Positions 2,391-54,320 of a DNA stretch of 64,000 nt are shown here, piece after piece (the first letter of the stretch is position 1; the number at the start of each line of letters is the position of its first letter). Origin of the DNA: Alphaproteobacteria bacterium (GTDB lineage Bacteria > Pseudomonadota > Alphaproteobacteria > UBA2136 > UBA6156); assembly GCA_049297695.1 (NCBI GenBank), contig JBAQUT010000004.1, positions 1,170 to 65,169 of the forward strand, in the 5' to 3' direction. The notes below the pieces were generated by a model. It saw only the letters and a program-made list of their open reading frames with translations, had not been told where the DNA came from and searched no databases. The translations under genes and the position numbers were made by a program.

Positions 2391-3059
2391 ATGAGTTTTA
2401 TGTCCAAAAGCCGCCAATGTAACAGCTCCACGGCTGGCTATACCATTGATCAAACCATCTTGATCGTAGCCATTATCGCCATTCTGGTAACCCTGATTAT
2501 CATCTCGGTGGGTTGGCAGCTGATCAACCGCACCAGCGGTACCAAATTAGCCTCACAATTCAAACAGATTGAAGATGCCAACGGTTCGTTCTATTCCAGC
2601 TTCCGTGTCTGGGTGGATGAAGCCTATACGGCCCCCGCAACCGGTGCTGTTAACAACATTTTGGCTTTGGCAGGTGTAGCTACTACGTGGCAACAAACGG
2701 TACCATTAGCCCAACGCCGCAACTTTATCCCCGGTTTCCGTATCAACGGCACCACCAACGTGCAACATAACTTCTCGTCGGGCGGTATCCTGAGCATGCA
2801 ACGCCTAACCAACCCCTTCGGTTTAACGGGTGAGTACTTTGTGGTGCAGTTCACCGGAGTACCTTTTAGTGAAGTAGAAGAAGCCGAGAGTGCCATTGAC
2901 GCTGGTAAAGATGATACCTTGCGAGATTACGACGCTGGTCGTGTGGTCGCAAGTACGGGCGCCTCATGCTTGGCAGCTACCGTAGCATCTCCTGCAACCA
3001 CAGCAACAGCTCCTGGTGTGTTGGTAACCGTGTGCTACGCTGCTAACCTGACTCAATAA
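2391..3059 (+). CDS. Type IVb prepilin (major pilin candidate, PilS-like)
   Basis: RBS GAGGAG. ~16-aa polar leader ending in Gly, followed by a ~25-aa hydrophobic helix (YTIDQTILIVAIIAILVTLIII). Two Cys near the C-terminus (disulfide D-region). Mature size ~205 aa. Confidence 0.7.
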   Translation: MSFMSKSRQCNSSTAGYTIDQTILIVAIIAILVTLIIISVGWQLINRTSGTKLASQFKQIEDANGSFYSSFRVWVDEAYTAPATGAVNNILALAGVATTWQQTVPLAQRRNFIPGFRINGTTNVQHNFSSGGILSMQRLTNPFGLTGEYFVVQFTGVPFSEVEEAESAIDAGKDDTLRDYDAGRVVASTGASCLAATVASPATTATAPGVLVTVCYAANLTQ

Positions 3060-3088
3060 CAAAAAATAATAAAAACAATGGAGATCAC

Positions 3089-5143
3089 GTGGTCCACACT
3101 GCGGAGAAAGGGTTGAACCTCGAACAAGGATTCAACCCGCCCACACCGACCGACACCCAAGGCCCGCATCCAGAACAGGATGTGGGCCTTGGTGCGTTGC
3201 GCGATGCCGTACATCCATCAGATTTTCAACTCCCTGAAACACCCCTTGGGTTTCATGTGAAGGCCACCGAAAGTGCGGGGTTTTCCATTCCTCTCGAGCC
3301 TACGGTCAGTCTCCCCGATCTTCCCCCGCCTCCTGCATTCGATGCAGGTGAAACGTTTGCAAATGTCCAGGATATCAGCCGTGTCGAGTCAGTTAGCGAT
3401 ATCGCCCACGATGTAGGGGCTGCCTTGGCTACCACGCCGCAAGAACGGCATTATTACGAGGTTTTGAAGGTGCTGCTGGCAGCCAAAGATTTGGGGTTGG
3501 ACGCCGTAGCCCGCAGCCAGATAGAAAGCGGTATTGCTGCACGCAAACTTCCCCAACTGATTTGTCGGGATTTGGTATCTCAACGGGTGCTCAACCGCAT
3601 CCAGTTGGCCCGTGCCACCGCCCGTGCCAGCAATGCGCGCGAGATTATGTCGTTTTTGGATATTCCTGGTGAAGCCTTGGGTCTACGGCAAACGCTGGAT
3701 GCCCGCATCATCGCCCTTTTGCGCAAAAACCGTATTGTCCCTCTCAGCCTTAAAAAAAGTGACGATGGCACCCAACCGACGGAACTTCACTTGGCCCACG
3801 ACAAGGTTTCACGGGATATCGTGCTACAAAACCACGTGGCCGATTTCTTTCCTCCCGGCATGCGGTTTCATTGGCATTTCATTTTAAGAGAGGTGGCAGG
3901 GGCTTACTGGCTGGCGGGCGAATCGGAAAGCATCGATACAGGGATGGAAGCGGAAGCCCTGATTGACCGCATTGTGGGGAACGCTGCCGATGCCCGCGCC
4001 TCGGATATCCATATCGATCCGTCCATCAAAGGCGAACCCCGTGCCATCATCAAATACCGCGTGGATGGTTTTGTGCACCCCAAAGAGGTGATTACTATGG
4101 AGCAGCTGGATAGGCTGCGCGTGCGGATTGAAAACCTTGCCCGTATGCCCAAGGTGAACCTCAACCACGCCAACAAAGGCGCGTTTACACGGGCAGGGTA
4201 CGATTGGCGGGTACAAATCCAGCCCCACGCAGGCCGCTTGGGCCCCGTGCCTCGCATTGTGTTGCGCCGCCTGCAGCCCGAGGTTATGCCGTTGGAAGTT
4301 TTGGGCTATCCGCAAGATTATATTGATAAAATTAAATCTGCCGCCACATCGTCCAACGGGGTTATTTTATGGACTGGCCCCACGGGTTCGGGGAAAACCG
4401 AATCCATTCACGCCGCCGTGGTGAGTGTGAACCCCATGGCTAAAGGCCTGTCGGTTCATACCATTGAAGACCCGCCTGAAAAACGTGTACCCGGCTATGC
4501 CGTACAAATGGAAATGGCGGAAGATGATCCTGCCCGTACAGGTTTGCAGTTGTTGAAATCGTCCCTCCGGGCTGACCCGGATGTGGTGATTTTTGGTGAA
4601 ATCCGGGATACTGAAATGGCCAAGTTGGTGTTTGAAGCCGCCAACACGGGCCACTTGGTGTTCAGCACCTTGCACACCAACAGCGCCATCGATTCGGTGG
4701 TGCGTTTAAGTGAGCTTGGGATAAACGGTTATTTGCTGTCTTATGTGCGGGGGATTGCATCTCAAAGGCTCATTCGTCGTTTATGTGTGCATTGCAAAGT
4801 AAAACACGAAGGACCACCCGACGAGTACACACGTTATGTGTTTGATAAATATGACGTGCCTATTGAAGGCGCCGATTTGTACATGCCCAATTTGGAAGGT
4901 TGCCCCAGCTGTAACTTTACAGGTTATTACGGCCGCGTAGCCGTGGCGGAATGGTTGCGCCCGAACAAGGAGATTATTGAGGCTACCCTGAACAATAACT
5001 TTGACCAAATGGAAGATATGGCCCGCCGCACAGGCTGGCAGCCCATGGGCCGTATGGGGGTCGAACATATTTACAGGGGTATTACCGATGCTGTTGAGCT
5101 TTCCACCAAGATTTTAGAGCTGGGCAGGGAGCTGGCCCAATGA
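3089..5143 (+). CDS. GspE/PilB-family pilus assembly ATPase with long Pro-rich N-terminal extension
   Basis: Walker A GPTGSGKTE, Walker B/Asp box DPDVVIFGEIRD, His box GHLVFSTLHTN, tetracysteine CVHC..CPSC. GTG start with GGAGA RBS. Confidence 0.9.
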   Translation: MVHTAEKGLNLEQGFNPPTPTDTQGPHPEQDVGLGALRDAVHPSDFQLPETPLGFHVKATESAGFSIPLEPTVSLPDLPPPPAFDAGETFANVQDISRVESVSDIAHDVGAALATTPQERHYYEVLKVLLAAKDLGLDAVARSQIESGIAARKLPQLICRDLVSQRVLNRIQLARATARASNAREIMSFLDIPGEALGLRQTLDARIIALLRKNRIVPLSLKKSDDGTQPTELHLAHDKVSRDIVLQNHVADFFPPGMRFHWHFILREVAGAYWLAGESESIDTGMEAEALIDRIVGNAADARASDIHIDPSIKGEPRAIIKYRVDGFVHPKEVITMEQLDRLRVRIENLARMPKVNLNHANKGAFTRAGYDWRVQIQPHAGRLGPVPRIVLRRLQPEVMPLEVLGYPQDYIDKIKSAATSSNGVILWTGPTGSGKTESIHAAVVSVNPMAKGLSVHTIEDPPEKRVPGYAVQMEMAEDDPARTGLQLLKSSLRADPDVVIFGEIRDTEMAKLVFEAANTGHLVFSTLHTNSAIDSVVRLSELGINGYLLSYVRGIASQRLIRRLCVHCKVKHEGPPDEYTRYVFDKYDVPIEGADLYMPNLEGCPSCNFTGYYGRVAVAEWLRPNKEIIEATLNNNFDQMEDMARRTGWQPMGRMGVEHIYRGITDAVELSTKILELGRELAQ

Positions 5144-13945: not shown

Positions 13946-15392
13946 GAACAATAACCTTCACCGCTGCATGCTCGTAGGGGCCAGCTTGGCTTTGCCCAGT
14001 TTGGGGTTTGCCTTGGCGGAACGCCTCCCCGCCATCGAACGCGGTGTGAAAGACGGCGTGGTGATAGCCGAAACCCGCATGGCCCAAGGCGATAGCTCGG
14101 TGATTGATGCCCTTGGCCAACCCGCCGATTGCAACGGCCCCGCCCTGCAGGTGAAAGTGGCCAGCGCCTTGGGCGAAAGCCACGCCCTGTACGATGCCAG
14201 CGGCGAACCCTGCAGCGATGCCAGCTTGTTGTTTGATGGCACCAGCGCCCTGGGCCAGCGTGCGGCCGACCCCGCCGTGCAAATTGGCTTTGTGGATGCT
14301 TTGGGCGCGTTCCCCGCCGAAACCCTTCCCGCACTCCCCCGCATTGTGGTGAACAGCGACCTCATGCCCGCCGACGCTCCGTTGGCGACACCTACTAACC
14401 CCGTGGGCGCCCCAGCGGCCGATCCCTTGGCGGAAACCATCCGTGCCTGGCAAGGCAACGTGGCCCAACTGGACGACCAAACCCAACGGGATGAGATTAT
14501 CGGCCAAGGCGAAGCCACCCAAGCTGCCTTGCGGAGCCTAGACCGTCAAACCGTGGATGTTTCCAGCCAGCACGACAAAGTGAACACCCTGCTGGCCAGC
14601 CTGCGGGAAAAAGAACGGGAACTGGCCGCCGCCGAAGCCCGCGCCAAATCCAGCCGCTTGAACAGTCAACAGCAACGGAGCATGGCGGAAGCCACGCTCA
14701 CCAAAGCCCAACAGGCCGAACAAGCTATGCGGGCGGAACTTCAAGCCGCCAAAGAGCGCTTGGCCCTGCAAGAAACCCAAAACCAACAATTGGCCGCCAG
14801 CAAAGCGAAGCAGGAAAAACTCCTTACGGGCCAAATCGCCTCCATGGGGGATGATTTGAAAGCGGCGGAAGCCAAAGCCAACGCCGGCCGCCAAGAGCTG
14901 ATTGCCCAAGCCGCCGCCAAAATTGCCGAAGCCGAAGCCTTGGCCAACACCGCCCGCCTGCAGGAGGCCGATGCCAAAGCCCGCGAAGCCGCCCGCCTGA
15001 AACAAGAGGCCGAAACCATGCTGGCCCGCGCCATGGATTTGGCCAACAACAAGGCCGTGATTGCGAGCGGTATGGAAAACATCTCTCCCAAGGCCGCCCC
15101 TATGGCGCTGATGGACGTGCCCGTGGTGTTCCATGCCACCAACCAAACCCTGCCGGAGTTGCTGCAAGCCATCGTGAAGCAAGCCGAACCCCAAGCTGGC
15201 GCATGGAAAGCCGATTTCCAACTGACCAAAGCCAACAGCTTTATTTTATCTGAAAAATGGAGCCTCACCGCCGAAGCCCCCGTGAAAGACCTGCTGGATA
15301 TCCTTACCCAGCAAATCCAAACCGCCCATAAAGTGAAACTCACCTTCACCCAGTTTCCTCAAGCACGGTTGGTGGTGGTGACAGATAACTAA
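13938..15392 (+). CDS. Secreted coiled-coil protein (484 aa) with a C-terminal domain paralogous to the preceding gene
   Basis: Signal peptide. Coiled-coil middle region. C-terminus ..KVKLTFTQFPQARLVVVTDN aligns with the C-termini of 11201..13945 and 1..401. Confidence 0.65.
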   Translation: MIKNNNLHRCMLVGASLALPSLGFALAERLPAIERGVKDGVVIAETRMAQGDSSVIDALGQPADCNGPALQVKVASALGESHALYDASGEPCSDASLLFDGTSALGQRAADPAVQIGFVDALGAFPAETLPALPRIVVNSDLMPADAPLATPTNPVGAPAADPLAETIRAWQGNVAQLDDQTQRDEIIGQGEATQAALRSLDRQTVDVSSQHDKVNTLLASLREKERELAAAEARAKSSRLNSQQQRSMAEATLTKAQQAEQAMRAELQAAKERLALQETQNQQLAASKAKQEKLLTGQIASMGDDLKAAEAKANAGRQELIAQAAAKIAEAEALANTARLQEADAKAREAARLKQEAETMLARAMDLANNKAVIASGMENISPKAAPMALMDVPVVFHATNQTLPELLQAIVKQAEPQAGAWKADFQLTKANSFILSEKWSLTAEAPVKDLLDILTQQIQTAHKVKLTFTQFPQARLVVVTDN

Positions 15393-15397
15393 CAACG

Positions 15398-15532
15398 ACA
15401 TCGTCGTCATGGCGAGCGCAGCGTGGTCATCTCAAGCCAAGAGGTATAAACAAGGGTTAAGGGGGCGCTAGCCCCCTTACGCCGCAGGCGTCATTCCGGC
15501 CGCAGAGCCGGAATCCAGAGCTCACAACGAAG
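15398..15532. repeat. GC-rich palindromic intergenic repeat (copy A; REP/MITE-like family)
   Basis: Modules gtcgtcatggcgagcgcagcg...atctcaagcc and gggttaagggggcgctagcccccttacgccgcaggcgtcatt recur at 16.65, 22.25 and 53.9 kb. Confidence 0.6.
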
Positions 15533-15662
15533 CCACCATAAGGCATATTTTTGGTGCTATAAAGCAACACCTGCCTCCTGCTACCTGCTACCTGCCTCCT
15601 GCAAGGCCTTGCAAACCTCGCCCGCCGCCCCATAATGTATCTAACCAAAGGAGAAACAACCT

Positions 15663-16625: not shown

Positions 16626-16649
16626 GTGAGGGGCTAGTCTAAGGTTGTG

Positions 16650-16835
16650 TCATGAGGGGGAGGGGGTTAAGGGGCGCAGCCCCTTACGCCGTAGGCGTCA
16701 TTGCGAGCGAAGCGCGGCAATCTCCCAAGCTTTGAGTTGACAGATTGCCGCGTCGGACGCGCTCCACGCGCTCCCTCCTCGCAATGACGCTCCGCGTTAT
16801 AAGGGGGTAACCCCCTTAACCCCCAACTTGTCGTG
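16650..16835. repeat. GC-rich palindromic intergenic repeat (copy B)
   Basis: Contains a ~100-bp imperfect palindrome (ggcgtcattgcgag ... ctcgcaatgacgc). Its terminal 50-bp module cgttataagggggtaacccccttaacccccaacttgtcg is nearly identical to 54093..54131. Confidence 0.65.
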
Positions 16836-17024
16836 GGTTAGCTATATCTTACCTAAAGACTGTATAAAATTTCAGGAAGGTTATGCAGAAGTTTGCAAAA
16901 TGCTCTATGGACTAAAAAATCGTAAACGCTAACGACATCTGCGTCATGCATCTTGGCGCTTGATTCTTGCATGTTTAACAAGCATTCCCTCGCTATATAC
17001 AATGTTCCGCGCTAGTCTGAGCTC

Positions 17025-19583: not shown

Positions 19584-19943
19584 ATGATTAAGCTTGGAAA
19601 TGTGACTATGGATGCCGAACGTTTAAAGTCGGTTATTCAAACCTTTCATGATGATCAAATTGAAGAAATGGCCTATTGGTTTTCATCGACCCTTGGATTT
19701 GGGTTACCCGAAGGTCATTCAAATGTAAAAGAAGCTCTTCTTTCTATTATTGATGAGAAAAGGATTCATCCAGAACTTGCAACAGCTCTTTACGCTGCGT
19801 TTATTGGTATGCGCATAGAAGAACAACGTGAAAAAGCACCAGAGAAGAAGCATTTTCGGATAACACGATTTGGTATTGTTGAAAAAGAAACGTCAAAAAC
19901 TTTCCGTATTGTTGATGATGGCCGAGATAATGAGCGCAGTTAA
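19584..19943 (+). CDS. Hypothetical protein, AT-rich islet gene
   Basis: Strong RBS AAGGAG. Clearly lower GC than flanking genes. Confidence 0.55.
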   Translation: MIKLGNVTMDAERLKSVIQTFHDDQIEEMAYWFSSTLGFGLPEGHSNVKEALLSIIDEKRIHPELATALYAAFIGMRIEEQREKAPEKKHFRITRFGIVEKETSKTFRIVDDGRDNERS

Positions 19944-20077: not shown

Positions 20078-22246
20078 ATGGCCAAAGCCAAACCTACCAA
20101 GGCCGCCAAGCATGTTGCCAAGGCTGCGCCTAGTGAGGTGGTTAAGGCGAAGGCCAAACCTGTCGCCATGCCTGCCGAGGACGACCTGAAAGCCGCCGAC
20201 GAAGGCTACCAACTGGCCCGCAAAGATGCCGCCAAATACCTTCACAGCCGCCGCCAAGCCATGTTTGCCCTCTCCCGCCGTTACCATTTGGAACCCGAGG
20301 ATGTGGAGCAAGAAGGTTTTGAAGTGCTGCTCACCTGTTTGCGGGATTTCAAACCCCAGTACACCAAAGCCAACGGCGAAACCATTCACGTACTGTTCAA
20401 CACGTTTTTTGGCAGCCGGTTGGATGGCAAGGCGCTGGAACTCCGTAACCGCGACCCCGAATACCAAGCCCGCCAAGCGCATTTGGAAGATATGTCGGAG
20501 GCCGATAAAACAGCTTTCCGCCAAGCCCCGCCGTTGTTAGTGCAACATCTCGACCAACAAACCTCCATGCAAGAACACCTTACCAGCGAGGCCTCCAACG
20601 CCCGCCGCAGCAATCAGGTGAGCACGGCCATGAAGATTGCCCACGACAGCTTCATTGATAAAAAACTCAACCAGCTGATAGCCCAAGAGCGCGATGACAA
20701 ACGCCGCGCTGCCCTGATGCATGTGAAGGTGGGCGGGGTGAGCAGCTTTGACGACATCGCCTACCACTTTGGGGTGACGGACAGCCGCGCCAGCCAGATT
20801 TTGAACGACCTGATGGACGCCTTTTACGTGCAACGCCTGCTGGATGGCGACCTGAAAAGCGTGGCGTACGATTGGAAAAAACTGAAAATGCAGCCCAAAC
20901 GCGCCGCCCGCCTTCTGGAAGACGCCGTGGCCAACAGCACGCGGGAACGCGCCAGCGAAATTGTGGCCGCCTTTGTGGCCGATTACCCCGAGGCGAAAAG
21001 CCTGCCGTTACCGGAACTCACGTCGGAGGCATCTGCCTCCGCCCCCGCCAAACTCACCACCGCAGGCACGGGCCGCACCTTTGCCGACCCCTTCACGGTG
21101 GACGACGATGCCCGCTACCCTTTGCTGGGTCTGGAATGGCGCAGCGTAGCCAGCCTGAACCCCCTGCACGTGCCCTTCCGCAACGGAGCAGATGACGCCC
21201 ACGAGCAACCCCACATCACCACCATCATGGCCACCGAGGCCGACCAATGGCCGCTCATCATCACCCACGAAGGCGGCGTGGTGGATGGCCAGCGCCGCTG
21301 GCATGCTGCCCAGCAGCGCGGCAAAGATAAAGTGCTATGCTTGGTGCGCCAAGTGCCCGAGCACGATGCTAAAATCATGCGTGTAGTAGCCAACTTGCGG
21401 CAAATCAAAGCCGACAAAATGGACGTGTACTTTGCCATCAGCGCCCTCAGCGATTTAGGGCTCTCCCAACAACGCATCGCTGCCGCCCTTGGTATTTCGC
21501 GCCCCAACGTGATTGTTTACGCCAAGGTGAAAGACAAAGCCACGCCCAAACTCCGTGCGTTGTTTGAGGATGGCTTCATCCAAATTACCAACGCCAGCGC
21601 CAGTGTGGATTTACCCGCCACCGCCCAAGACGGCATGGCGGAGTTCATCCGCAAACACGGTGCCACATGGGGCAAAGGCCCCCAGTTTAACGAGGTTTAC
21701 GAGGCCGCCGCCTCGGGCAAACTCTCCAAACTGGCCGCCATGCAACCGGAGCCTCAAGCCCCCAACACGACCGCAGCACCAACTCCCGCATGGGCGCCCG
21801 TTCCAGTATCCACCGCCATGGCCGTGGCCCCGGCCGACCAAAACGTGGTGCAAGCCCTGCGCAACCGTCAAACCGCCATGGAAACTGCCCTGCGCGACGC
21901 CGAAACCTGGGGCCAACAGCGGGAAGGGGTAGTAGCCCGCCAAACGTCAGAAATCACGGATTTAAAACAACAACTCGATGCCCTCAAGCGCGAACTTCAA
22001 GCCCACGACTTGCTGAAATACGGCGACGAAGCCACGGTGGCGGGTTTGATGAAAGAAATCAAAGGTTTTTACGCGGTGGTGGAACGCTTGGCTGGCGCCA
22101 GCTACCAACTGGATAAAGCCCATAAATCCCTGCGCGGCCAACCGTTAAGCTACAAACAAATCCAAGAGGTTCAAACGCTGACCGACACCATGGAAGCCAG
22201 CCTGTCCGCCCTGCGGGTGGAGCTTTCCAGCAAAAACCGTCGTTAA
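20078..22246 (+). CDS. Fusion protein: Lys/Ala-rich tail plus sigma-70 region2/region4-like plus ParB/Srx-like nuclease domain plus coiled-coil
   Basis: N-terminal AKAKPTKAAKHVAKA repeats. EDVEQEGFEVLLTCLRDFKP is region-2-like. VSSFDDIAYHFGVTDSRASQIL is a region-4 HTH. DGQRRWHAAQQ is a ParB GxxR motif. Confidence 0.6.
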   Translation: MAKAKPTKAAKHVAKAAPSEVVKAKAKPVAMPAEDDLKAADEGYQLARKDAAKYLHSRRQAMFALSRRYHLEPEDVEQEGFEVLLTCLRDFKPQYTKANGETIHVLFNTFFGSRLDGKALELRNRDPEYQARQAHLEDMSEADKTAFRQAPPLLVQHLDQQTSMQEHLTSEASNARRSNQVSTAMKIAHDSFIDKKLNQLIAQERDDKRRAALMHVKVGGVSSFDDIAYHFGVTDSRASQILNDLMDAFYVQRLLDGDLKSVAYDWKKLKMQPKRAARLLEDAVANSTRERASEIVAAFVADYPEAKSLPLPELTSEASASAPAKLTTAGTGRTFADPFTVDDDARYPLLGLEWRSVASLNPLHVPFRNGADDAHEQPHITTIMATEADQWPLIITHEGGVVDGQRRWHAAQQRGKDKVLCLVRQVPEHDAKIMRVVANLRQIKADKMDVYFAISALSDLGLSQQRIAAALGISRPNVIVYAKVKDKATPKLRALFEDGFIQITNASASVDLPATAQDGMAEFIRKHGATWGKGPQFNEVYEAAASGKLSKLAAMQPEPQAPNTTAAPTPAWAPVPVSTAMAVAPADQNVVQALRNRQTAMETALRDAETWGQQREGVVARQTSEITDLKQQLDALKRELQAHDLLKYGDEATVAGLMKEIKGFYAVVERLAGASYQLDKAHKSLRGQPLSYKQIQEVQTLTDTMEASLSALRVELSSKNRR

Positions 22247-22249
22247 AAC

Positions 22250-22335
22250 GTGTCGTCATGGCGCTTGTCCTCCGTAGCCTTGGCGAAGGAGGAAGCATAG
22301 TCATCTCATGCCAAAGGCAAATCCTGTAACTAGTA
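22250..22335. repeat. GC-rich intergenic repeat (copy C, variant of the gtcgtcatggcg..gtcatctca module)
   Basis: Shares gtcgtcatggcg and gtcatctcatgccaa with copy A. Confidence 0.5.
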
Positions 22336-40380: not shown

Positions 40381-41016
40381 ATGAGATGTAAGGTTGTTGC
40401 AGGTTGGGTGGCGGTGGTAGCCGTAGAGGCTGTTTTGTTAGGATTATGTGGCTGGCAAATAGCCCGTATGGTGGAAAAAAACCATCTGGCGGAACAGGAA
40501 TCTCAACGTACCCCCATGGTTTTGGAAGGTACATGGGAAGCATTTACTACAACGGCCTTGGATAACCAACCTAACCCCCTGAGTCCCGACAAGGTGGGGT
40601 GGCGTGTGTTAACCGCGTTTCACACTCCAAGCGGAACCGTGGTGGTAGATAGAGGGTGGGCGCCATTACCAGCCGACCGTACGGCTCCGCCTGATTTGAC
40701 GAAGTACACCCCTTCGGGAATAACCGTTACAGGTGTATGGGCTTCATTTCCTCAGCGTAAAGGCTGGTTGTCGGGGCCGGATACCACCACACATCCCCGT
40801 ATTCTGGCATGGCTGAATCCCACCCTGATTACTTCCTCTACGTTAGGCCCCATGTACCTTCAGGCAACCTACCCTGCCGACGCAGGTTTAATAGCCCAGC
40901 CGCCCGCACCGCCCGATGGTTCCCGTCATGCCAGCTATGCTTTGCAATGGTTGGTGATGGCGTTGGTATTTCCCATCCTGATGTGGATTCGGGTACGGAA
41001 AACCCCTAAAGTTTAG
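40381..41016 (+). CDS. SURF1-family protein
   Basis: GWQIxR motif (GLCGWQIARMVEK) with two terminal TM helices. Confidence 0.65.
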   Translation: MRCKVVAGWVAVVAVEAVLLGLCGWQIARMVEKNHLAEQESQRTPMVLEGTWEAFTTTALDNQPNPLSPDKVGWRVLTAFHTPSGTVVVDRGWAPLPADRTAPPDLTKYTPSGITVTGVWASFPQRKGWLSGPDTTTHPRILAWLNPTLITSSTLGPMYLQATYPADAGLIAQPPAPPDGSRHASYALQWLVMALVFPILMWIRVRKTPKV

Positions 41017-41695
41017 CCAACGTCGCCACAACAGCCGTGTCGGTTCGTAACACGGTAGAGCCGAGCGATATGGGAACAACATACAGTTGGGTTTCCAACC
41101 ATGCTTGTTCATCGGGGGAAAACCCGCCTTCTGGCCCCACCAACACGGCCGTAGCGGTGGGGATGGGGGTGGGTGTTGAAAGCCGTTCATCCGCCCATAA
41201 AATCTTCTCATTTGGGTTAGCCGTATGCCATGCTGCTAAGGCTTTCTGGAGAGGTTGCGGAGGGGTAAGGGTTGGCAAACACATCCGCTCGCATTGCTCG
41301 GCCGCTTCCACCATCAGGGCATGGGCGCGGGCGGTGTTGATGGTGCTGGCCACGGTGTAATCGGTATGAAGTGGCACAAGCGTTGTCACCCCCAGTTCCG
41401 TTGCTTGCCGCAGCACAGTTTCCCAAGCGTCTCGTTTGGGTTGCCCCAAAAACAACGTGCGGGGTGGCAAGGCCGAAAAAGGTTTGGTTTGGTCTGTTAC
41501 GGTGGCCCAGCGGGCTTTGCCATCTTCCAACATCGCCGTAAAAACACCATCTTTGCCATTCATCAAGTTCAGTTCAACGCCTTCGCGGTTCCGCAGCACG
41601 GTGCGCAAGCGGTGCTGAAGGTTTTCCGGCAAAGCCACGCGGTTACCCACCGCCAACGGCGCATCCACATAAAACTGTTTAAATCCTTGCGTCAT
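41006..41695 (-). CDS. rsmE: 16S rRNA m3U1498 methyltransferase RsmE
   Basis: DUF558/RsmE-like N-terminal PUA domain and C-terminal SPOUT fold pattern. 229 aa. Confidence 0.65.
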   Translation of the reverse strand: MTQGFKQFYVDAPLAVGNRVALPENLQHRLRTVLRNREGVELNLMNGKDGVFTAMLEDGKARWATVTDQTKPFSALPPRTLFLGQPKRDAWETVLRQATELGVTTLVPLHTDYTVASTINTARAHALMVEAAEQCERMCLPTLTPPQPLQKALAAWHTANPNEKILWADERLSTPTPIPTATAVLVGPEGGFSPDEQAWLETQLYVVPISLGSTVLRTDTAVVATLAKL

Positions 41696-42675
41696 ATGCC
41701 AACATTCACATGGGTGTCAGCGGTCATCCACACGGCCTTGGGGTCGGGAAGGCGTGGCCCGAGGGTTTGAATGACAGCCCCACCCAGCAAATGCCCCCGA
41801 CGCAAAGCCAATGAAGGCGAGGCCCCTTCGGCAAACGCGGCCAAAAATCCGGCAGCAAACGCATCTCCCGCGCCTGTGTTGTCCACAGGAACATCCACGT
41901 TGCGACTGAGTTCGGTAAAGGTGGTGCCATCGGCCGCAACATACATGGCACCTTGGCTGCTGTTGGTTACCACACGGGCGGTACGGGCAAGGGTGGCACG
42001 CAGGGGGATGGGTAAATGTGTCTCCAAAGCCTTAAATTCATGAGTATTTCCAACAATCAAAGTAACACCATGTTCCAGCACATGCCCCAAGGCATCCGCC
42101 GTAGCCGCACATACATGGGGGGCTGGTAACAGCAAGGCAACGGCCATGCTTTGCTCGCGGGCAATGTTCAGGCACGCTACCGTTGCCGCAGGCCAGTCAC
42201 GGGCTATGTACCCTTCTACCACCAGCCATGTGGCGGGGCGGATAACCGCTTCATCCACCCAGTCGTCATGTTGGTGGGGCACAGGGGGTATGGGTTGCAC
42301 CATCGTGCGGGTACCATCGGGGGTCACCAACACAAACAGTTCCGTGGTGCGGTAGGTATCGTGGGGGGTTACTGTGGTAAGGCCTGCGGCTAGCAAGTCT
42401 TTAAAAAAATGCCGGCCCGCGGGGTCGGTCCCTATCGGCCCAGCAAAGCACGTAGAATATCCAAGTTTTGCCAACGTATAGGCAACGTTGGCCCCTGCGC
42501 CTCCGCTTTGAAACTTTTGCACGTTAGCCTGGGCACTTATTTGGATCATGGATTCGGGAGTTACCATGTTGGCATCGCCCGCTTTAAGGTTGTGGGCGGT
42601 AACAAACGCCGCATCCATGGGCGCCAAGGCATCTACAACGGGGTTGCCAATCACGGCAAAACGGATGGTTGTCAT
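41692..42675 (-). CDS. PfkB-family carbohydrate/nucleoside kinase
   Basis: GG motif near the N-terminus and DNTGAGDAFAAGFL PfkB signature 2. Confidence 0.8.
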   Translation of the reverse strand: MTTIRFAVIGNPVVDALAPMDAAFVTAHNLKAGDANMVTPESMIQISAQANVQKFQSGGAGANVAYTLAKLGYSTCFAGPIGTDPAGRHFFKDLLAAGLTTVTPHDTYRTTELFVLVTPDGTRTMVQPIPPVPHQHDDWVDEAVIRPATWLVVEGYIARDWPAATVACLNIAREQSMAVALLLPAPHVCAATADALGHVLEHGVTLIVGNTHEFKALETHLPIPLRATLARTARVVTNSSQGAMYVAADGTTFTELSRNVDVPVDNTGAGDAFAAGFLAAFAEGASPSLALRRGHLLGGAVIQTLGPRLPDPKAVWMTADTHVNVGI

Positions 42676-43102
42676 GGTTTTCAGTGTGGCGCGAGGCTTA
42701 CTGAATGTCCAGCGTCAAAGATGTAGGTTGTATGACTTTTAGGTGATGCGAAAACAAAGCACCTTCAATGTTCCGCGATTATTTAATGTATAAAACGTTG
42801 TTTGAAATTTATACAGACATACATAACGAAAACGATAGAATCATGTCATATGTTTCACGGTTGTTTATTAAGATAAAGGAAGCTCCTTGGTCCAAGCGTA
42901 TATTGGCTGAGAAGTTTTTCCTTTTAGAATATGCTCACCCACAAGGCAGACGAAGAATGCCCCCTGAGGGGGGGTGTGGCGGAAATACAGGAATCTGACG
43001 GGGTGAGTGCCACAAAAAAGGTCATTACATAAGTAAGTACATACTCTCTTTCACGGACTTGCCACTGTTATAGAGGCTGGGAGTGCTCTATAAGAATGAA
43101 GC

Positions 43103-44287
43103 ATGACTCTCAAACAGCCTCTCCGTGTTCTTCAGTTGATACCTGCCTTACATGAAGGGGGTACCGAGCAGGGCGCTGTGGATATGGCTTTTTATACTCG
43201 CACACATGGTGGAGTGCCCTTCATGGCTTCGGCAGGAGGGCGTTGGGCTGAGCACGTGAAGGCCCAAGGCATTCATCATACAACCCTCTCGTTGAACAGT
43301 AAAATGCCATGGTCTGTCGTGTGGAACATTTGGCGGATTTGGTACCTTATCCGTAAAAATAACATACATATTGTACACGCCCGCAGCCGCTTGCCAGCAT
43401 GGTGTGGGTGGGTAGCTTGTAAGTTGACTGTTTTCAGGTGTGTTCGTTTTATAACAACCTTCCACGGAACCTATGGCCACGGGTCGTCCCTTAAAAAAGG
43501 GTACAACCGTGTTATGCTGAAAGGCCCCTATGTGATTGCTAACTCCAATTTTATTGCGCGCCATATTACCACCGAATATGGCTACCCGCCCGACCATATT
43601 GTGGTAGCGGAGAGAGGGGTGGACACCGCTGTGTTCAACCCAACCCTCTATTCATCCCGTCAGCAAAACGGTCTTCGTGCGGAGCTCAAAGTTCCCCCCC
43701 AAACGCCTCTCTTTGTTATGGTCGGGCGTTTAACCCGTTGGAAGGGGCACACGGTGCTGCTGGAAGCCTTGTCTCATTTAAAGGATATACCGTGGGTGTT
43801 GGCGCTTGCTGGAGACAGTAAAAATCAGGCGTATCTGGATGAACTAAAGGCGTTGACGGTAACTTACGGTATTGCCGACCGTGTGCGGTTTTTGGGGCCG
43901 CGTCAGGATGTTGCTTTGCTAAATGTTACAGCGGACATCGCCCTGAGTTGTTCGGTGGAGCCCGAAGCCTTTGGGCGTGTGGCTATTGAGGCGATGGCGA
44001 TGGGAACGCCCATTGTTGCCAGTGCCCACGGCGGCAGCCTGGATACGGTGGTGGATGGTACAACAGGTTGGCTTGTACCCCCGGGCGACGCGGATGCTTT
44101 GGCCCATACCATCTGTAGGGCTCTAAAAACTCCCAAAACACTGGAAAACATGGGCAAGAAAGCCCGAACCCATGTTCTGGCGCGCTTTACCAGCGCCCAT
44201 ACCTGCGCCGCCGAGTGGAGCGCTTATGAGAAGGTGATGGGTAGCCCTGCCACAGGTGGGTATGCCAAGCGTAAGCCGAAGACTTGA
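43103..44287 (+). CDS. Glycosyltransferase family 4
   Basis: EAFGRVAIEAMAMGTPIVAS...GGSLDTV, the GT4 C-terminal E-X7-E region. Confidence 0.85.
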   Translation: MTLKQPLRVLQLIPALHEGGTEQGAVDMAFYTRTHGGVPFMASAGGRWAEHVKAQGIHHTTLSLNSKMPWSVVWNIWRIWYLIRKNNIHIVHARSRLPAWCGWVACKLTVFRCVRFITTFHGTYGHGSSLKKGYNRVMLKGPYVIANSNFIARHITTEYGYPPDHIVVAERGVDTAVFNPTLYSSRQQNGLRAELKVPPQTPLFVMVGRLTRWKGHTVLLEALSHLKDIPWVLALAGDSKNQAYLDELKALTVTYGIADRVRFLGPRQDVALLNVTADIALSCSVEPEAFGRVAIEAMAMGTPIVASAHGGSLDTVVDGTTGWLVPPGDADALAHTICRALKTPKTLENMGKKARTHVLARFTSAHTCAAEWSAYEKVMGSPATGGYAKRKPKT

Positions 44288-44331
44288 CCCAAACCGAACT
44301 TGCCCACAACCATGGCGGGTAACAAGAAAGC

Positions 44332-44811
44332 TTGGGTATGAAACGTTGTTTGCTGGCTGTGGATATGCAAGGGTTTTTCCGCCCGTCACCGGGCATGGTG
44401 TCCCAAATCAACCAAATGGCCCAAACCATGCCGACGGCGGCCACCATGATGAAGCACGATGAATCGAAGGTGCCGCTGGCCAAATTTGGCAAGCCTGTGC
44501 CCATGGATACGGGGCTGGTGATTGGGTGCAGCAACGTATTTGATAAGTTCGGGTTTGCCGTACCGCCTGCTGCGTTGGAGTGGCTGAAAGCCCAAAACCC
44601 TGACGAGGTGTTGGTGGCGGGCGGGCATACCGATGGCAATGTGCTCTCGGCGGGGTTGGATGTGTTCAACGCCGGCATGAAACCCGTGATTGTACCCCTG
44701 CTGTGCTACGGAAACGATTGGTACATGCACACCGTGGCCGCCAAAATATGGGAACAAGAGCTGGGTAAGGTGTACCAAAGCGTGGCCGAACTGAAGTTTG
44801 GAGGTTTTTGA
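44332..44811 (+). CDS. Isochorismatase-family hydrolase-like protein
   Basis: LLAVDMQGFF and VLVAGGHTDGNV..PVIVPLLCYG patterns. Confidence 0.45.
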   Translation: MGMKRCLLAVDMQGFFRPSPGMVSQINQMAQTMPTAATMMKHDESKVPLAKFGKPVPMDTGLVIGCSNVFDKFGFAVPPAALEWLKAQNPDEVLVAGGHTDGNVLSAGLDVFNAGMKPVIVPLLCYGNDWYMHTVAAKIWEQELGKVYQSVAELKFGGF

Positions 44812-45149
44812 TGCGGATGCTGCTGGTGGTTGCAGGTTCCCTTCTCGCCACAGGCTGCAGCCCCGCGTTGCAGGAAAACTTTAACCATGCTTACCGGAAA
44901 GACATGGAGCAGCTTCAAACCCGGGAATGGGCAGCTGAATTTAAACAGTTTTTTGCGGTGGACGAAGTGTATCGCTCGTACGCGCTGAAAGAAAAAGAAG
45001 CCGAACGGGATGTATGCTTCCACTCCAACAGCCAGCGCCGCATTATCCGCCAAGAAGGCATCTCGGACCATATGGATTACACATGGTGCGTGATGGCTCC
45101 TCCGGCGGATAACCTCGGCAGCCGAATGGATGGCCGGCCGGATGTTTAA
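44808..45149 (+). CDS. Small lipoprotein
   Basis: Lipobox LLATGC. ATGA overlap with the upstream gene. Confidence 0.5.
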   Translation: MMRMLLVVAGSLLATGCSPALQENFNHAYRKDMEQLQTREWAAEFKQFFAVDEVYRSYALKEKEAERDVCFHSNSQRRIIRQEGISDHMDYTWCVMAPPADNLGSRMDGRPDV

Positions 45150-45949
45150 CGACTCTGGGCAATATCAAAGGTAATTTTTGAAATTCGCCGCCGCTCTTCT
45201 TTTTGTGATGCTTGTTTGTTGGTATCAAAGCACGGTGCATCAGGCACGAGTGTATGAGAGCGTGTAGGGTCTCCATTGGCTGCTTTTTTTGTAAACCGCT
45301 GGTTTACTATTGTGTCGCCTCTTAAATCGCGACGAAAGTTATCTGTTTGGTTATGGCCATTTTTGTAAATCATGATTTTGTCCTTTGGTAGGTTGAAAGT
45401 GTAAATAGAGAAAAAATGATAAATACGTTTAAAAGGCCCCTAGCGGGGCATCAACATGGCCATGGAAGCGTGTTGATGAATCATGAGTGGTTTTATAATG
45501 TATCCACATGAGGTGCGTCAACTAAAAAAACACCCAAAGGTGGTTTTCCTCCAATATAAGGAACATTAATCGGTGATGCTCTTACCGTCGTCCGTTAACC
45601 GCGCAGGAATAAGGGATACGGATACAGTGCCGCGGGCCAAGGGTTCCTCACGAGATTGAGGCTCATGCGGTGTCGTTGAAAGTGCCGTACCGAGTTGTCT
45701 CCAATAAGTTTGGCATTCTTGGAGGGAGGCCCTTCCACCCAAGCTACGAAGGTTGCGGTTCATAACTTCGTCGGAGGGTTTGTGCATGGTCGTTTCTTTC
45801 TTCAGTCATACGGAATTCCCTTCCGCTTGGGGTACGTGGATATAACAAAAATATGTGAAATGAAGCTGCCCTTAGGGCAGAATAAACAGGCTTACGCGAG
45901 TGTTTAAATGCATCATTTCAAGCAGTGTATAAAACCCCAAACAACCTTG

Positions 45950-46903
45950 TCAACCAGAAATCTTCCTCAACATATCCTTCACGGCCTTCACCCGTGCTTT
46001 TTGCCCTGCCGCGTTAGCGCGGTGGCCGCACAACTCCACCCAATACAGGCGGCTGATGGGGTGGGCGGCATGCAAGGCCAAGGCGCTTTCGGGCGGGCAC
46101 ACCATATCCAACGCGCCTTGCACGATGTGGAGCGGGATGTGGGCGATTTTGGAAATATTGTTCAAAAGTTGATTGGGGGCGAGGAAACACCCTTGGCTAT
46201 GGTAGTGGGCGCCCACTAGGTTCATGGCCATTGCGGCAGGAGTAGGTGTTACAGCTTCTTCAATCTCCATCAAATTGGGGACTGGTTCGCAACAGGCTAA
46301 GGCGTATCGCGACCATGCACTGCAAGCATTTTTGGCCTTAGTTTTATCTTTACCTTGAAGGGTTTTTAACAGTTTGGCCATAACATGTTTGCCGTCGGGC
46401 GCACCCACCGATTCGCACATTTGGCGGTACGCCACAGGGTGAAACCGTGCAACACCATTTGGCCCTTCAAACCATGCGTTCTCTCGGGATGTGCCCAAAT
46501 AGGCCCCGCACACCACTAAACCCAACACACGAGAAGGGTAAGCCTCGGCATAGGCTAAGCCCAAAGCGCATCCCCAACTATATCCCATAACAATCCATGA
46601 TTGGATTCCAAGGTGGTGACGAAGCTTTTCGATATCCGCTACTAAGTGGTGCGCGGTGTTATTCTGTAAACGTCCCAATGGTTTACTTTTTCCACATCCA
46701 CGTTGGTCAAAAGCGATGATATGGCAGCGTATGGGGTCGGCCGAACGGCGATGTTTGTCCGAGATACCTCCTCCCGGCCCCCCATGCAACATCAACACAG
46801 GAACCCCCTTCGGATTCCCGCTCTGCTCATAGTACATGGTGTGGCCGTCGGAGAGTTTCAGGTGGCCGGTTTTGAACGGCTGGATGTCGGGATAAAGGCT
46901 CAT
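45950..46903 (-). CDS. pip: Proline iminopeptidase (S33 alpha/beta hydrolase)
   Basis: HGGPGGG oxyanion motif and the GYSWG nucleophile elbow. Confidence 0.85.
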   Translation of the reverse strand: MSLYPDIQPFKTGHLKLSDGHTMYYEQSGNPKGVPVLMLHGGPGGGISDKHRRSADPIRCHIIAFDQRGCGKSKPLGRLQNNTAHHLVADIEKLRHHLGIQSWIVMGYSWGCALGLAYAEAYPSRVLGLVVCGAYLGTSRENAWFEGPNGVARFHPVAYRQMCESVGAPDGKHVMAKLLKTLQGKDKTKAKNACSAWSRYALACCEPVPNLMEIEEAVTPTPAAMAMNLVGAHYHSQGCFLAPNQLLNNISKIAHIPLHIVQGALDMVCPPESALALHAAHPISRLYWVELCGHRANAAGQKARVKAVKDMLRKISG

Positions 46904-46993
46904 AGGGGCACTTTGTACCAGAACATCTTGGCGGGCAAGCCGATTTGCGCTAGGTTGCAGCGGTTAACCCCATTCATAACAGGAGAGAGTGCC

Positions 46994-49057
46994 ATGGTGC
47001 GCATTACGTTGCCCGACAGTTCCATCAAAGAGTTTGCGGGCACCACCACCGGTACTACCGTGGCGGAAAGCATTGGGGCAGGTTTGGCCAAAGCCGCGCT
47101 GGCCGTGGAAGTGAATGGCAAACCGCAGGATATGGACAGCCCCATTGCGGTCGATGCCACCCTGAGCATTGCCACCCTGAAATCTCCCCTTGGGCTGGAT
47201 ACCGCCCGCCACACGCTGGCCGCCCAAGTGCTGGCCCGCACCGTGAAAGAGATGTACCCCACCGCCAAACTGGCCATTGGCCCCACCATTGAGAACGGCT
47301 GCTATTACGACATTGAATTTGCCAAAGCTATTTCCAGCGATGACTTGCCGAAGATTGAGGAACGGATGAAAGCCATCATCGCCCAAGGGTTTGCGGTGAA
47401 GCGCGAGCATTGGGAACCTGCCAAGGTGCGAGCATATTTTGAATCCAAGGGCGAGCCCTACAAGGTGGAACTTGTGGACGGCGCGGTGGAAAAAGGCGAG
47501 TTGGTGGAGGGGAAATATCTTTCCGTGTACCGCCAGATGGACGGGGAGAACGAGGTGTTTCTCGACCTCTGCCGCGGGCCCCACGTACCGAGTTTTGGCA
47601 AGCTGACGCTGGCGTTCAAGGTGAACACGTTGGCCGGTGCCTACTGGCGCGGAGATAGTACCAAACAACAATTGACCCGCATTTACGTGGTAGCCTTTGC
47701 CACGCAGAAAGAGCTGGATGCCTACCTGACCATGCGGGAAGAAGCCGAAAAGCGCGACCACCGGAAGATTGGCCCCGCGCTGGATTTGTTCCACTTCCAA
47801 GAAGAAGCGCCCGGACAAGCATTTTGGCATGCGGGGGGCTGGACACTGATGCTGGAAATGGAACACTTCATCCGTGAAAACCTGCGCCGCTACGATTATA
47901 AGGAAGTTAATACGCCGAAATTGGTTAATAAACGGCTCTATGAAGCCAGTGGGCATTGGCAAAATTACCGCGAAAATGGTTTTGTGTTTTCAGACCCTGT
48001 TATTCAACCCATTATTGAACCTTCCAACTACCCAGACCAACAGAAAAAGACGATTGGTGACTTAGCCAAACAGCTCGATGCGTTGGATATCCATATGCTG
48101 AAGCCGATGAACTGCCCTTGCCACGTGCAGATTTTCAACCAAGGGATTAAAAGTTACCGTGATTTGCCGTTACGGATGTCTGAATTTGGCTGCTGCATGC
48201 GGAATGAAGCGAAGGGCGCATTGCATGGGTTGATGCGTGTCACATCCATGACCCAAGATGATGCCCATATCTTCTGTACTGCTCAGAATATGGAAGAGGA
48301 AATCATTACCCTGTGCAAACTCATTGATGAAGTTTATAAGCCGTTTGGTTTTACTCAATACAGCGTACGTTTAGCCACACGTCCTGAAAAACGTGTTGGA
48401 GATGATGCCTTGTGGGATGCTGCCGAGAAAGGGTTAGCGGATGCCTGCGCAAAACGAGGAATACCTTTGACCATTGCTGCTGGTGATGGGGCATTTTATG
48501 GGCCCAAATTGGAGTATCACCTTACCGATGCCATTGGCCGCAGCTGGCAATGTGGTACCATTCAATTGGACTTCAATTTACCTCAGCGCCTAAGTGCATT
48601 TTATACAAATGAACAAGGCGAAAGGGTGAACTGCGTGATGATTCACCGTGCTCTGTTTGGTTCAATTGAACGCTTCATCGGCATTTTGATTGAAAACTAC
48701 GAAGGCAAATTCCCCGTGTGGTTGGCGCCGACGCAAGCGGTGGTGATTCCGATTTCCGACAAGCAGTCCGAGTATGCCGAGACGGTGCGGAAGGCGTTGT
48801 TTGAGGCCCCAGTTGTAACCGCCACGGGCGGGTTGCGCGTGGAAGTAGATGCCAGCAACGAACGCATGCAGAAGAAGATTCTGGTGGCCCAGCAACGGAA
48901 GGTTCCCTACATGTTGGTGGTAGGGGCTAAGGAGGCCGAAACCGGCACCGTGGCCGTACGCCTGCGGGATGGTACCGACCTTGGCGCCATGCCGCTGGCC
49001 GATTTTGTGGCCCGCGTGAAGGGCGAGGTGGATGGGCGTAAAGACCAAGGATGCTAG
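46994..49057 (+). CDS. thrS: Threonyl-tRNA synthetase
   Basis: Class II aaRS motifs and the C-terminal anticodon-binding domain. AGGAGAGAG RBS. The listed ORF start at 46703 is an upstream read-through. Confidence 0.95.
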   Translation: MVRITLPDSSIKEFAGTTTGTTVAESIGAGLAKAALAVEVNGKPQDMDSPIAVDATLSIATLKSPLGLDTARHTLAAQVLARTVKEMYPTAKLAIGPTIENGCYYDIEFAKAISSDDLPKIEERMKAIIAQGFAVKREHWEPAKVRAYFESKGEPYKVELVDGAVEKGELVEGKYLSVYRQMDGENEVFLDLCRGPHVPSFGKLTLAFKVNTLAGAYWRGDSTKQQLTRIYVVAFATQKELDAYLTMREEAEKRDHRKIGPALDLFHFQEEAPGQAFWHAGGWTLMLEMEHFIRENLRRYDYKEVNTPKLVNKRLYEASGHWQNYRENGFVFSDPVIQPIIEPSNYPDQQKKTIGDLAKQLDALDIHMLKPMNCPCHVQIFNQGIKSYRDLPLRMSEFGCCMRNEAKGALHGLMRVTSMTQDDAHIFCTAQNMEEEIITLCKLIDEVYKPFGFTQYSVRLATRPEKRVGDDALWDAAEKGLADACAKRGIPLTIAAGDGAFYGPKLEYHLTDAIGRSWQCGTIQLDFNLPQRLSAFYTNEQGERVNCVMIHRALFGSIERFIGILIENYEGKFPVWLAPTQAVVIPISDKQSEYAETVRKALFEAPVVTATGGLRVEVDASNERMQKKILVAQQRKVPYMLVVGAKEAETGTVAVRLRDGTDLGAMPLADFVARVKGEVDGRKDQGC

Positions 49058-50172: not shown

Positions 50173-50741
50173 TGCCGTGTTGAAGATATGGTTGGCTCTG
50201 GTGCGTTTGTTGGGCGTTTATCCTCAAACCCCGCAGCTGTTATTTCTTCGGCACGTTTTTGGGCTTGCGCGTAACGGCCCCGAACGAGTTCATGTTTGGT
50301 ATAGAGACTCAACCTCGTGTTGATAACGCGCTCCCGTTTTTCCTGAGATAATTCCACGGCCTCCACATACAGCTTGGATGCCGCGATTTCATCCATCAGG
50401 CTTTTAAGCATGAGATTGCGCGCCATGTGTGGTTTTTGCTCAAAGAATCTTTGACGGGCTCGGTGATATTCATAACTTCCACGAGAGTCTAAAATTGTTA
50501 CCGATAAAAATTTCTTTATGTCAATAATTTGAATGGGCGATGAATCATTCGGATCAAGTACTTGGAAACTTTTAATGCTGGCATTACCAGTTAACTTACT
50601 CAGAAACTCCAAATAGAAATCTGACACTCTTTGGGCATTATATATAGCCAGTGTACGACCACTTTCATCGAGAGATTCTAATTCTTTCTTCAACTCATCC
50701 ATTGGATTTTGGATGGTTTGGTTGGACTTTGTGACGAACAT
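50169..50741 (-). CDS. Hypothetical protein, AT-rich islet gene
   Basis: 190-aa ORF with distinctly lower GC, lying between the thrS-adjacent membrane protein gene and infC. Confidence 0.5.
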   Translation of the reverse strand: MFVTKSNQTIQNPMDELKKELESLDESGRTLAIYNAQRVSDFYLEFLSKLTGNASIKSFQVLDPNDSSPIQIIDIKKFLSVTILDSRGSYEYHRARQRFFEQKPHMARNLMLKSLMDEIAASKLYVEAVELSQEKRERVINTRLSLYTKHELVRGRYAQAQKRAEEITAAGFEDKRPTNAPEPTISSTRH

Positions 50742-50850
50742 GGAACACCTCTTTATGTATACTTGTATTTATAAAAAAACAAGGCTTCGTCAACCCCCTT
50801 GCTTTTTGGCCATTTGTTTGGCATAGCTAACCCAACATCAATCAACAGGA

Positions 50851-52954: not shown

Positions 52955-52975
52955 ATAAGGGCATGATACGGCAGG

Positions 52976-53833: not shown

Positions 53834-53865
53834 TCTATCTAAATAACTTTATTTTAAGGCATGTA

Positions 53866-54131: not shown

Positions 54132-54165
54132 CAAACCAAAGTTATTTAGCTATAGCATCCTCACA

Positions 54166-54240: not shown

Positions 54241-54320
54241 GTTGTTCAACCTGTGGCAGAAGCTTGGAAAAACGTCAAGAACAGGGTGACTTGGCGGGCG
54301 ATTTCGGCTAGGTTTGGGCC

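Follow-up and report, generated by a model that had tools for sequence, protein, structure and literature searches.

Modular hairpin repeats resembling the Neisseria NTS/dRS3 element at four intergenic sites of an uncultured alphaproteobacterium-like genome

In Neisseria, a 20-bp repeat called dRS3 (ATTCCCN8GGGAAT) flanks the RS spacers (PMC1797815), and the same sequence forms the core of an oriented 28-nt hairpin repeat, NTS, with the consensus CGTCATTCCCGCGMAVGCGGGAATCYRG (PMC11893778). The small GIY-YIG protein SsnA binds and cleaves NTS solely in the form of single-stranded DNA; the GTC that lies 5' of the palindrome dominates cleavage by SsnA and the C right after the palindrome dominates binding (PMC11893778). 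Genes of the ssn type (cd10448 GIY-YIG) are often flanked by copies of NTS, and motifs like it, termed Ssn-related motifs (SRM), are found in many Pseudomonadati, among them the alphaproteobacterial genera Rhizorhabdus, Wolbachia, Rickettsia, Sphingomonas and Devosia (PMC11893778). The authors of that work also draw a parallel between NTS-type repeats and the extragenic palindromes known as REP and BIME (PMC11893778). Here we describe a family of palindromic repeats found at four sites (A, B, C and D) in a 64,000-nucleotide stretch of chromosomal DNA (contig JBAQUT010000004.1 of assembly GCA_049297695.1; hereafter the window) from an uncultured alphaproteobacterium-like lineage. As judged from sequence, the hairpin core of this family closely resembles the Neisseria NTS/dRS3 repeat, which would make it a known kind of repeat and not a new system.

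Copies of the repeat were present at all four sites, as a first-pass annotation of the window had described, and they were intergenic at every one of them. That annotation had recognised three interchangeable modules; however, its third module (cgttataagggggtaaccc...) proved to be a reverse-complement variant of the second, so that these two are a single module in opposite orientations and the family is built from two types of module, which we call H and T, rather than three. Nor did its first module (gtcgtcatggcg...atctcaagc) stand apart, as this belongs to the H class together with the 'gcgtcattgcgagcg...gcaatctc' and 'gcgtcattcc...ggaatcc' parts. The H unit is an oriented hairpin repeat consisting of CGTCAT, a palindrome and ATC, and seven of them were found across the four sites:

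u1, 15403-15438, plus strand: site A, GTCGTCATGGCGAGCGCAGCGTGGTCATCTCAAGCC, a degenerate NTS-like unit
u2, 15489-15520, plus strand: site A, CGTCATTCCGGCCGCAGAGCCGGAATCCAGAG, NTS-like with a perfect 8-bp stem (DNA fold -8.0 kcal/mol, z = -2.6)
u3, 16696-16730, plus strand: element B, CGTCATTGCGAGCGAAGCGCGGCAATCTCCCAAGC, stem of 5+3 bp
u4, 16742-16789, minus strand: element B, CGTCATTGCGAGGAGGGAGCGCGTGGAGCGCGTCCGACGCGGCAATCT, long interior
u5, 22252-22312, plus strand: site C, GTCGTCATGGCG...GTCATCTCATGCC, long bulged inner stem
u6, 53904-53931, plus strand: element D, CGTCATTACAGCAAAGCTGTTGGTCTCC
u7, 54059-54086, minus strand: element D, CGTCATTCCAGCGCAGGCTGGAATCCAG, perfect 8-bp stem

Comparison of these units with NTS revealed that the features on which recognition by SsnA depends were kept throughout. 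The CGTCAT that NTS and SRM require 5' of the palindrome was present in 7/7 H units, and all seven retained both the GTC before the palindrome and a C immediately after it (as AAT-C, CAT-C or GGT-C). The closest likeness was seen for u7, which differed from the NTS consensus by two mismatches that together make up one compensatory stem pair (0 matches of this quality were expected by chance; the published criterion for a match allows one mismatch, PMC11893778), and which also fits the published SRM regular expression. Both flanks of u2 are shared with NTS, including the same AATCCAG end, and the sequences nearest to the dRS3 core were ATTCCAGCGCAGGCTGGAAT in u7 and ATTCCGGCCGCAGAGCCGGAAT in u2. 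The stems of the various units differ by compensatory changes (ATTCCGGC/GCCGGAAT, ATTCCAGC/GCTGGAAT, ATTGC/GCAAT and ATGGC/GTCAT), such that the ATGGC/GTCAT stem base of u1 covaries with ATTGC/GCAAT of u3. Thus H resembles NTS and SRM in being an oriented hairpin with a 5' CGTCAT, a palindrome of the form ATT..-..AAT and a C directly 3', and in having copies that cluster between genes. It departs from them in that most of the H units here have a stem of the GCGAG or ATGGC type, which lies outside the SRM regular expression, and in that those linked to T are preceded by two extra hairpins.

These extra hairpins make up the T module, which spans 40 nt and lies directly 5' of an H unit. It comprises two small GC hairpins followed by GCGTCATT: the first (hp1) is TTAAGGGGG-loop-CCCCCTTA (AAGGGGG/CCCCCTT), the second (hp2) is CGCC-NNN-GGCG or CGC-NNN-GCG, and TCATT comes after it. 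The copy at site A illustrates the arrangement:

T module of site A, 15454-15495, plus strand: hp1 TTAAGGGGG-CGCTAG-CCCCCTTA, hp2 CGCC-GCA-GGCG, then TCATT; 64 bits with the covariance model

When the window was searched with the pattern GGGTTRAGGGGN{3,9}CCCYYAN{6,12}GCGTCATT, five matches were obtained at three loci (15454, 16664 and 53869 on the plus strand; 16783 and 54080 on the minus strand), compared with 0 matches across 100 dinucleotide-preserving shuffles. Folding of the variants as DNA predicted both T hairpins in every case (z = -2.9 to -3.9), and hp1 of the left end of element D carries one compensatory A-T to G-C swap.

The two modules are combined differently from site to site:

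Site A, plus strand: u1-T-u2, intergenic, 3' of the stop codon of a plus-strand gene
Element B, 16662-16824, with a shared 3' extension AACTTGTCG to 16833: inverted doublet
Site C, 22252-22312, plus strand: u5 alone, no T module
Element D, 53867-54122, with AACTTGTCG to 54131: T-H (53867-53931), an interior of about 125 nt, H-T (54059-54122)

In element B the order is T-H (16662-16730), an 11-nt loop and H-T (16742-16824), or T-u3-loop-u4-T, and the whole forms an imperfect palindrome; this had been recognised earlier, although at about 165 nt it is considerably longer than the 100 bp or so then given. Element D has the order T-u6-interior-u7-T, with ends that pair around an unrelated interior. 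The interiors of B and D are unrelated to each other and their ends are alike: B-right and D-right, which lie 37 kb apart, have 52 nt in common at 96% identity. Site A and B-left share 23 nt, also at 96% identity. The likeness of site C to site A, a 12-nt exact stretch and the 3' motif, is weak by itself. Both doublets fold into long hairpins, element B with a predicted energy of -104 kcal/mol as RNA (z = -7.7) and element D with z = -5.2, so the RNA structure prediction that had been proposed as a check returned stable folds. Given the five matches to the T pattern where none was expected, the 52 nt shared by B and D and the z-values of the folds, the repeats are real and non-random, and the earlier description of a modular, dispersed, GC-rich palindromic family with H at sites A-D is upheld.

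The copies at A, B and C lie 3' of the stop codons of plus-strand genes, with u1 beginning 11 nt past the upstream stop codon (15390-15392) and u5 beginning 6 nt past that at 22244-22246; element D follows the stop codon of a LysM-like gene (53833) and ends short of the 3' end of a tRNA-Arg gene (54166). Sites A and B are in addition upstream of promoter-like sites of the next gene. This placement past stop codons, the promoter-like sites beyond A and B and the very stable RNA stems are what one would expect if ordinary terminators or mRNA-stabilising hairpins had evolved in place at each site. However, a role in termination, which had been suggested at the outset, found no backing, as no terminator-like site or T-run was present 3' of any of the hairpins on the sense (plus) strand. 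The 52 nt that two loci 37 kb apart share at 96% identity, and the near-identical units in unrelated taxa, exclude independent local origin, and relatives were found that lack the elements at the same sites. We consequently regard evolution in place as extremely improbable.

The arrangement of the units, single at A and C and as inverted doublets around unrelated spacers at B and D, corresponds to the dRS3-RS-dRS3 layout of neisserial intergenic mosaic elements (NIMEs), and it also recalls REP doublets (REPINs). In the NIMEs of Neisseria, inverted hairpin repeats similarly enclose unrelated spacers of 20-150 bp, the repeats build mosaic modular arrays, and the arrays are associated with variable loci (PMC1797815); elements B and D are comparable to the dRS3-RS-dRS3 units of those arrays. 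Unlike NIMEs, the elements described here form short arrays of 1-3 units with T hairpins added at the termini, and they reside in an uncultured alphaproteobacterium-like lineage. Taking layout and core sequence together, we lean towards the view that this is a non-coding, intergenic mosaic family of T and H modules, in which H is of the NTS/dRS3 (SRM) kind and the layout is NIME- or REPIN-like, and which would have been spread by an Ssn nuclease or a hairpin-specific transposase.

Several results weigh against this view. The SRM regular expression fits 1/7 H units (u7), with 0.3 expected by chance; the other six units match neither it nor the NTS consensus, and the exact dRS3 core ATTCCCN8GGGAAT was found in 0/7. 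The local hairpins of u1, u4, u5 and u6 are weak as DNA. Covariation in T was not significant, since 76 of 500 shuffles of the six copies reached the observed value. In the collections scanned, the full T module was encountered outside the window solely as one diverged T+H copy, in the relative L082 (20090-20135). Finally, no ssn gene was found in the 64 kb: none of the 61 window open reading frames (ORFs) scanned with Pfam encodes a GIY-YIG protein (0/61), and a rough six-frame GIY-YIG motif expression, unvalidated on known Ssn sequences, gave no match in the window or the loci.

An alternative is that these are REP or REPIN elements moved by a RAYT, a transposase like those of IS200/IS605, with the hairpins serving as RAYT sites and the doublets at B and D being REPINs. 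REP, BIME and REPIN sequences and their RAYTs are reportedly the subject of work by Bertels and Rainey in 2011, Nunvar in 2010 and Ton-Hoang in 2012. The two have several features in common: both are extragenic palindromes just past stop codons, both form inverted doublets that fold into long hairpins and both build mosaic, BIME-like arrays, with mobilisation presumed to proceed via single-stranded hairpins; the REP/BIME parallel drawn for NTS itself points the same way. A GTAG tetranucleotide is also present 5' of the H hairpin in B-left. However, GTAG is not conserved, as it was seen solely in B-left and the other copies have GCAG, GGAG, AACG or GAAG there, and no RAYT/Y1 or other transposase gene was detected among the ORFs scanned (0/61). 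To our knowledge, the CGTCAT...ATC flanks are of the NTS type and do not belong to any of the described REP classes. REPINs are thus an unlikely explanation.

H units are not confined to the window. They were found in the relatives L082, L090, L092 and L095, both at orthologous and at other sites; examples are CGCCGCAGGCGTCATTCCCGCG... at site A of L095, TCATGCCCGCGCAGGCGGGTATCC at site A of L092 and CGTCATTGCGAGCGTTTACGCGAAGCAATCTCC at site C of L090, in the same position as u5. An intergenic region of a Psychrobacter plasmid contains a 26/27-nt match to u3. When metagenome contigs were scanned for hp2 joined to the start of H (CGCCGYAGGCGTCATTSC), at least 120 stretches were retrieved; most were chance matches in coding sequence, and about 12 were true H units directly past a stop codon (tgaCGCCGCAGGCGTCATTGCGAG...GCAATC). 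These were often inverted doublets or three-unit arrays with a layout like that of B and D (contigs L104, L112, L139, L175, L202 and L217), and the inverted-partner layout of the u4 type recurred in L175, L112 and L104. Many environmental contigs (L104, L112, L136, L139, L175 and L217) were seen to have an hp2 of the form TGACGCC-GYA-GGCGTCA, whose first three bases serve as the upstream gene's stop codon, so that the unit abuts or supplies the stop.

The T module behaved differently. Its exact pattern gave 0 matches for the full module in the genome and metagenome contig collections; a 181-nt segment spanning element B, with both T modules, found nothing T-like among the PLSDB plasmids; and about 130 kb of sequence from relatives yielded no additional copy with a covariance model of T. 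A looser pattern produced one match in viral contigs, which was discarded as a chance match inside a recombinase gene. Rfam returned no family for any element at either gathering or E-value thresholds, and six-frame translations of the modules had no match in the protein database at E <= 10. The question of whether the family is unique to the window therefore has a divided answer, with H widespread and the full T module found, in the collections scanned, in the window and as the diverged copy in L082; T has so far been seen in this lineage alone.

Relatives with synteny across the sites made it possible to ask what lies at each of them elsewhere. The closest of these, L086 (82% identity in SLT), covers sites A and B, not C or D. 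The contents were as follows:

Site A, from the stop codon of the upstream gene to the pilin promoter: u1-T-u2 in the window; an S23p / 23S_rRNA_IVP gene with inverted repeats of about 35 nt in L086; an H unit by itself in each of L092 and L095; an empty site in each of L090 and L093
Site B, from an 89-aa gene to the TraE-like gene: element B in the window; a second S23p cassette in L086; an empty site of 47 nt in L095-97; a DUF1428 gene and an apparent tRNA gene in L093
Site C, after a 722-aa gene: u5 in the window; an H unit at the L090 site; an empty site in both L092 and L095
Site D, from the LysM-like stop codon to tRNA-Arg: 332 nt including element D in the window; an empty site of 14 nt in L218/L219

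Orthologous sites are thus variously empty, occupied by an H unit alone or occupied by S23p cassettes, and they are therefore hotspots of insertion and loss, as the first-pass annotation had proposed. The insertion at site B of L093 (7807-8529) is of a third kind, with the DUF1428 gene on the opposite strand and an apparent tRNA gene.

The two L086 cassettes (2620-3090 and 4082-4530) are intact and resemble the intervening sequences (IVS) of rRNA genes; each has an ORF for an S23p / 23S_rRNA_IVP four-helix bundle and is bounded by inverted repeats of 28-35 nt that consist of short tandem repeats. They lie between protein-coding genes of a type IV secretion and type IV pilus cluster, and not in rRNA. 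Traces of both could be aligned in the window:

Right inverted repeat remnant of an S23p cassette at site A, 15570-15602, plus strand: CCTGCC-rich, aligned together with the promoter to L086 3040-3145 (alignment A1)
Pilin promoter at site A, 15609-15636: TTGCAA-16-CATAAT, conserved
3' remnant of an S23p (PF05635) cassette beside element B, 16834-16975, plus strand: the last 30 or so codons (...KFQEGYAEVCKMLYGLKNRKR*), which end in a stop codon at 16930-16932, together with a degenerate right inverted repeat

The second remnant aligned almost without gaps at the DNA level to L086 4375-4590, through the stop codon and into the start of the next gene (alignment A3); Pfam and BLASTP did not recognise this putative short remnant, and the claim rests on the alignment. 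Neither B nor D contains an S23p ORF (PF05635), the only traces being the neighbouring 3' remnants. With such remnants kept beside both A and B, the palindromic modules would therefore appear to occupy the positions that the 5' parts of older IVS-like cassettes once took up. When the left flanks of B and D were aligned with that of the L086 cassette, the result was unconvincing, and we make no claim that D lies inside a cassette remnant.

The occurrence of intact S23p cassettes at exactly sites A and B of L086, and of their remnants in the window, raised a further possibility, namely that the elements are decayed, ORF-less IVS-like cassettes that act at the RNA level, where RNase III would excise the element and process the operon transcript. 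In IVS the terminal inverted repeats are cut by RNase III and the ORFs decay (PMC4990558), and the very long stems of B and D would suit this. IVS and S23p elements are similar also in having long terminal inverted repeats, with stems of at least 100 kcal/mol, and in appearing selfish and neutral (PMC4990558). However, B and D have no ORF, are outside rRNA and have termini unrelated in sequence, neither T nor H being related to the inverted repeats of the L086 cassettes. Element B replaces part of the ORF and does not derive from it, H units occur alone at cassette-free sites (site C, L090, L095 and metagenome contigs), and the NTS-type flanks are conserved whatever the long-range pairing. Decay from such cassettes is accordingly improbable in our estimation.

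The variation in presence or absence at orthologous sites also bears on whether B and D might be miniature inverted-repeat transposable elements (MITEs) of an insertion sequence of the DDE type, with T as the terminal inverted repeat mobilised in trans. The two elements, of 165 and 256 bp, do end in inverted T modules of about 45 nt, and the interiors of B and D differ where their ends are the same. However, no target-site duplication flanks B or D (there are no direct repeats), T stands alone in site A, and the ends are nested hairpins, unlike the termini typical of insertion sequences; the segment spanning B matched nothing T-like in PLSDB, and the genome and metagenome scans revealed no parent insertion sequence. 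An origin as MITEs is thus improbable.

A broader and equally doubtful suggestion is that the T-H...H-T units are ORF-less members of a wider class of hairpin-bounded selfish cassettes, along with NTS-ssn-NTS units and S23p/IVS cassettes, all of which would share hairpin-targeted insertion of single-stranded DNA into landing pads past stop codons. If so, the alternation of S23p cassettes and palindromes at A and B would represent direct competition or replacement, and there would be a mechanism for the long-unexplained mobility of IVS.

The surroundings of element D and the sequences of the repeats provided some further observations. The neighbouring features are:

Left arm of an AT-rich outer inverted repeat, 53835-53850: CTATCTAAATAACTTT, enclosing element D
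Right arm of the same repeat, 54138-54155: AAAGTTATTTAGCTATAG, enclosing element D
tRNA-Arg(CCT), 54166-54240, minus strand: neighbour of element D, given for context and outside the repeat

Element D therefore lies within an AT-rich inverted repeat of 16-18 nt, as though it had been inserted into the loop of an older hairpin. The sequence TTAGCTATA is found soon after the common AACTTGTCG extension in both B (16838-16846) and D (54147-54155). The repeats also create spurious ORFs (53865-54107 and 16645-16740 on the plus strand, 53963-54139 on the minus strand), with peptides such as WIPACAGMT, VIPAQAGIQ and VIASEARQS; we take strings of this kind to be present in hypothetical proteins of many Proteobacteria.

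With regard to the wider context, the first 34.5 kb of the window (1-34571) are occupied by the type IV pilus and type IV secretion cluster, with genes for a secretin, PilQ/PilR-like proteins, a prepilin peptidase, two TrbC/VirB2-like pilins, and TraE-like, SLT, TrbI and TraC/VirB4-like proteins, and the remainder carries housekeeping genes (AcrB, ThrRS, IF3, tRNA-Arg, MutS, MurJ and GDH). In every relative fetched the cluster was syntenic with the same housekeeping genes, and it is therefore a lineage-conserved chromosomal cluster rather than a recent island. For MutS (55140-57731), the nearest relatives after an identical protein were 81% and 71% identical, and among species representatives the matches listed were all from Alphaproteobacteria, at no more than 49% identity. 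The synteny and the lack of an integrase led us to reject an att site of an integrative element; an oriT was rejected because the sequence recurs at unrelated loci, and CRISPR or attC arrays because spacing and motifs did not fit.

Some differences from the relatives were seen in the rest of the window. After SLT the relatives have a gene for a UvrD-like helicase, where the window has only a 119-aa ORF (19584-19943). The segment from an RNA methyltransferase gene to murJ (about 41000-59330) is inverted with respect to L218 and L082, in which murJ abuts SURF1 and RND-pump genes. The gap between a 373-aa gene and infC (50169-50851) measures 680 nt and contains a 190-aa minus-strand ORF without a Pfam match; in L218 and L082 the corresponding distance is about 75-120 nt. 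A partial duplicate of tRNA-Arg lies beside the intact tRNA-Arg in L082 (8545-8625) and resembles an integration scar.

As to how such a family might act, the match of the H core to NTS/dRS3, which as single-stranded DNA is a target of Ssn nucleases, makes action at the level of DNA, rather than RNA, the best supported. A cognate GIY-YIG Ssn nuclease, with its gene elsewhere in the genome, would bind and cleave the H hairpins at a stage when DNA is single-stranded, such as replication, repair, transformation or conjugative transfer, and the elements may have spread through single-stranded intermediates owing to this nuclease or to a hairpin-specific transposase. Copies that are transcribed would give very stable 3' stem-loops, which could block exonucleases or be cleaved by RNase III, and it is plausible, from the modelled folds, that effects on mRNA stability or RNase III processing are side effects of these structures.

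The repeats described here would extend the NTS/NIME type, once thought specific to Neisseria and generalised in 2025, to an uncultured alphaproteobacterium-like lineage without a close cultured relative, in which NTS-like repeats appear fused to additional hairpins seen in this lineage alone. The filled and empty orthologous sites document turnover at fixed intergenic hotspots, and both the lineage-restricted terminal hairpins and the alternation with IVS-like S23p cassettes at two of these sites are unusual. The alternation takes place inside a cluster of DNA transfer machinery, a plausible setting for single-stranded DNA, on which Ssn nucleases act. Should the two types of cassette prove to be linked, this would give a way into the question of how IVS move; otherwise this is an ordinary repeat family, of use for annotation, where it bears on spurious ORFs and assembly breaks, and for the choice of new pairs of Ssn nuclease and target.

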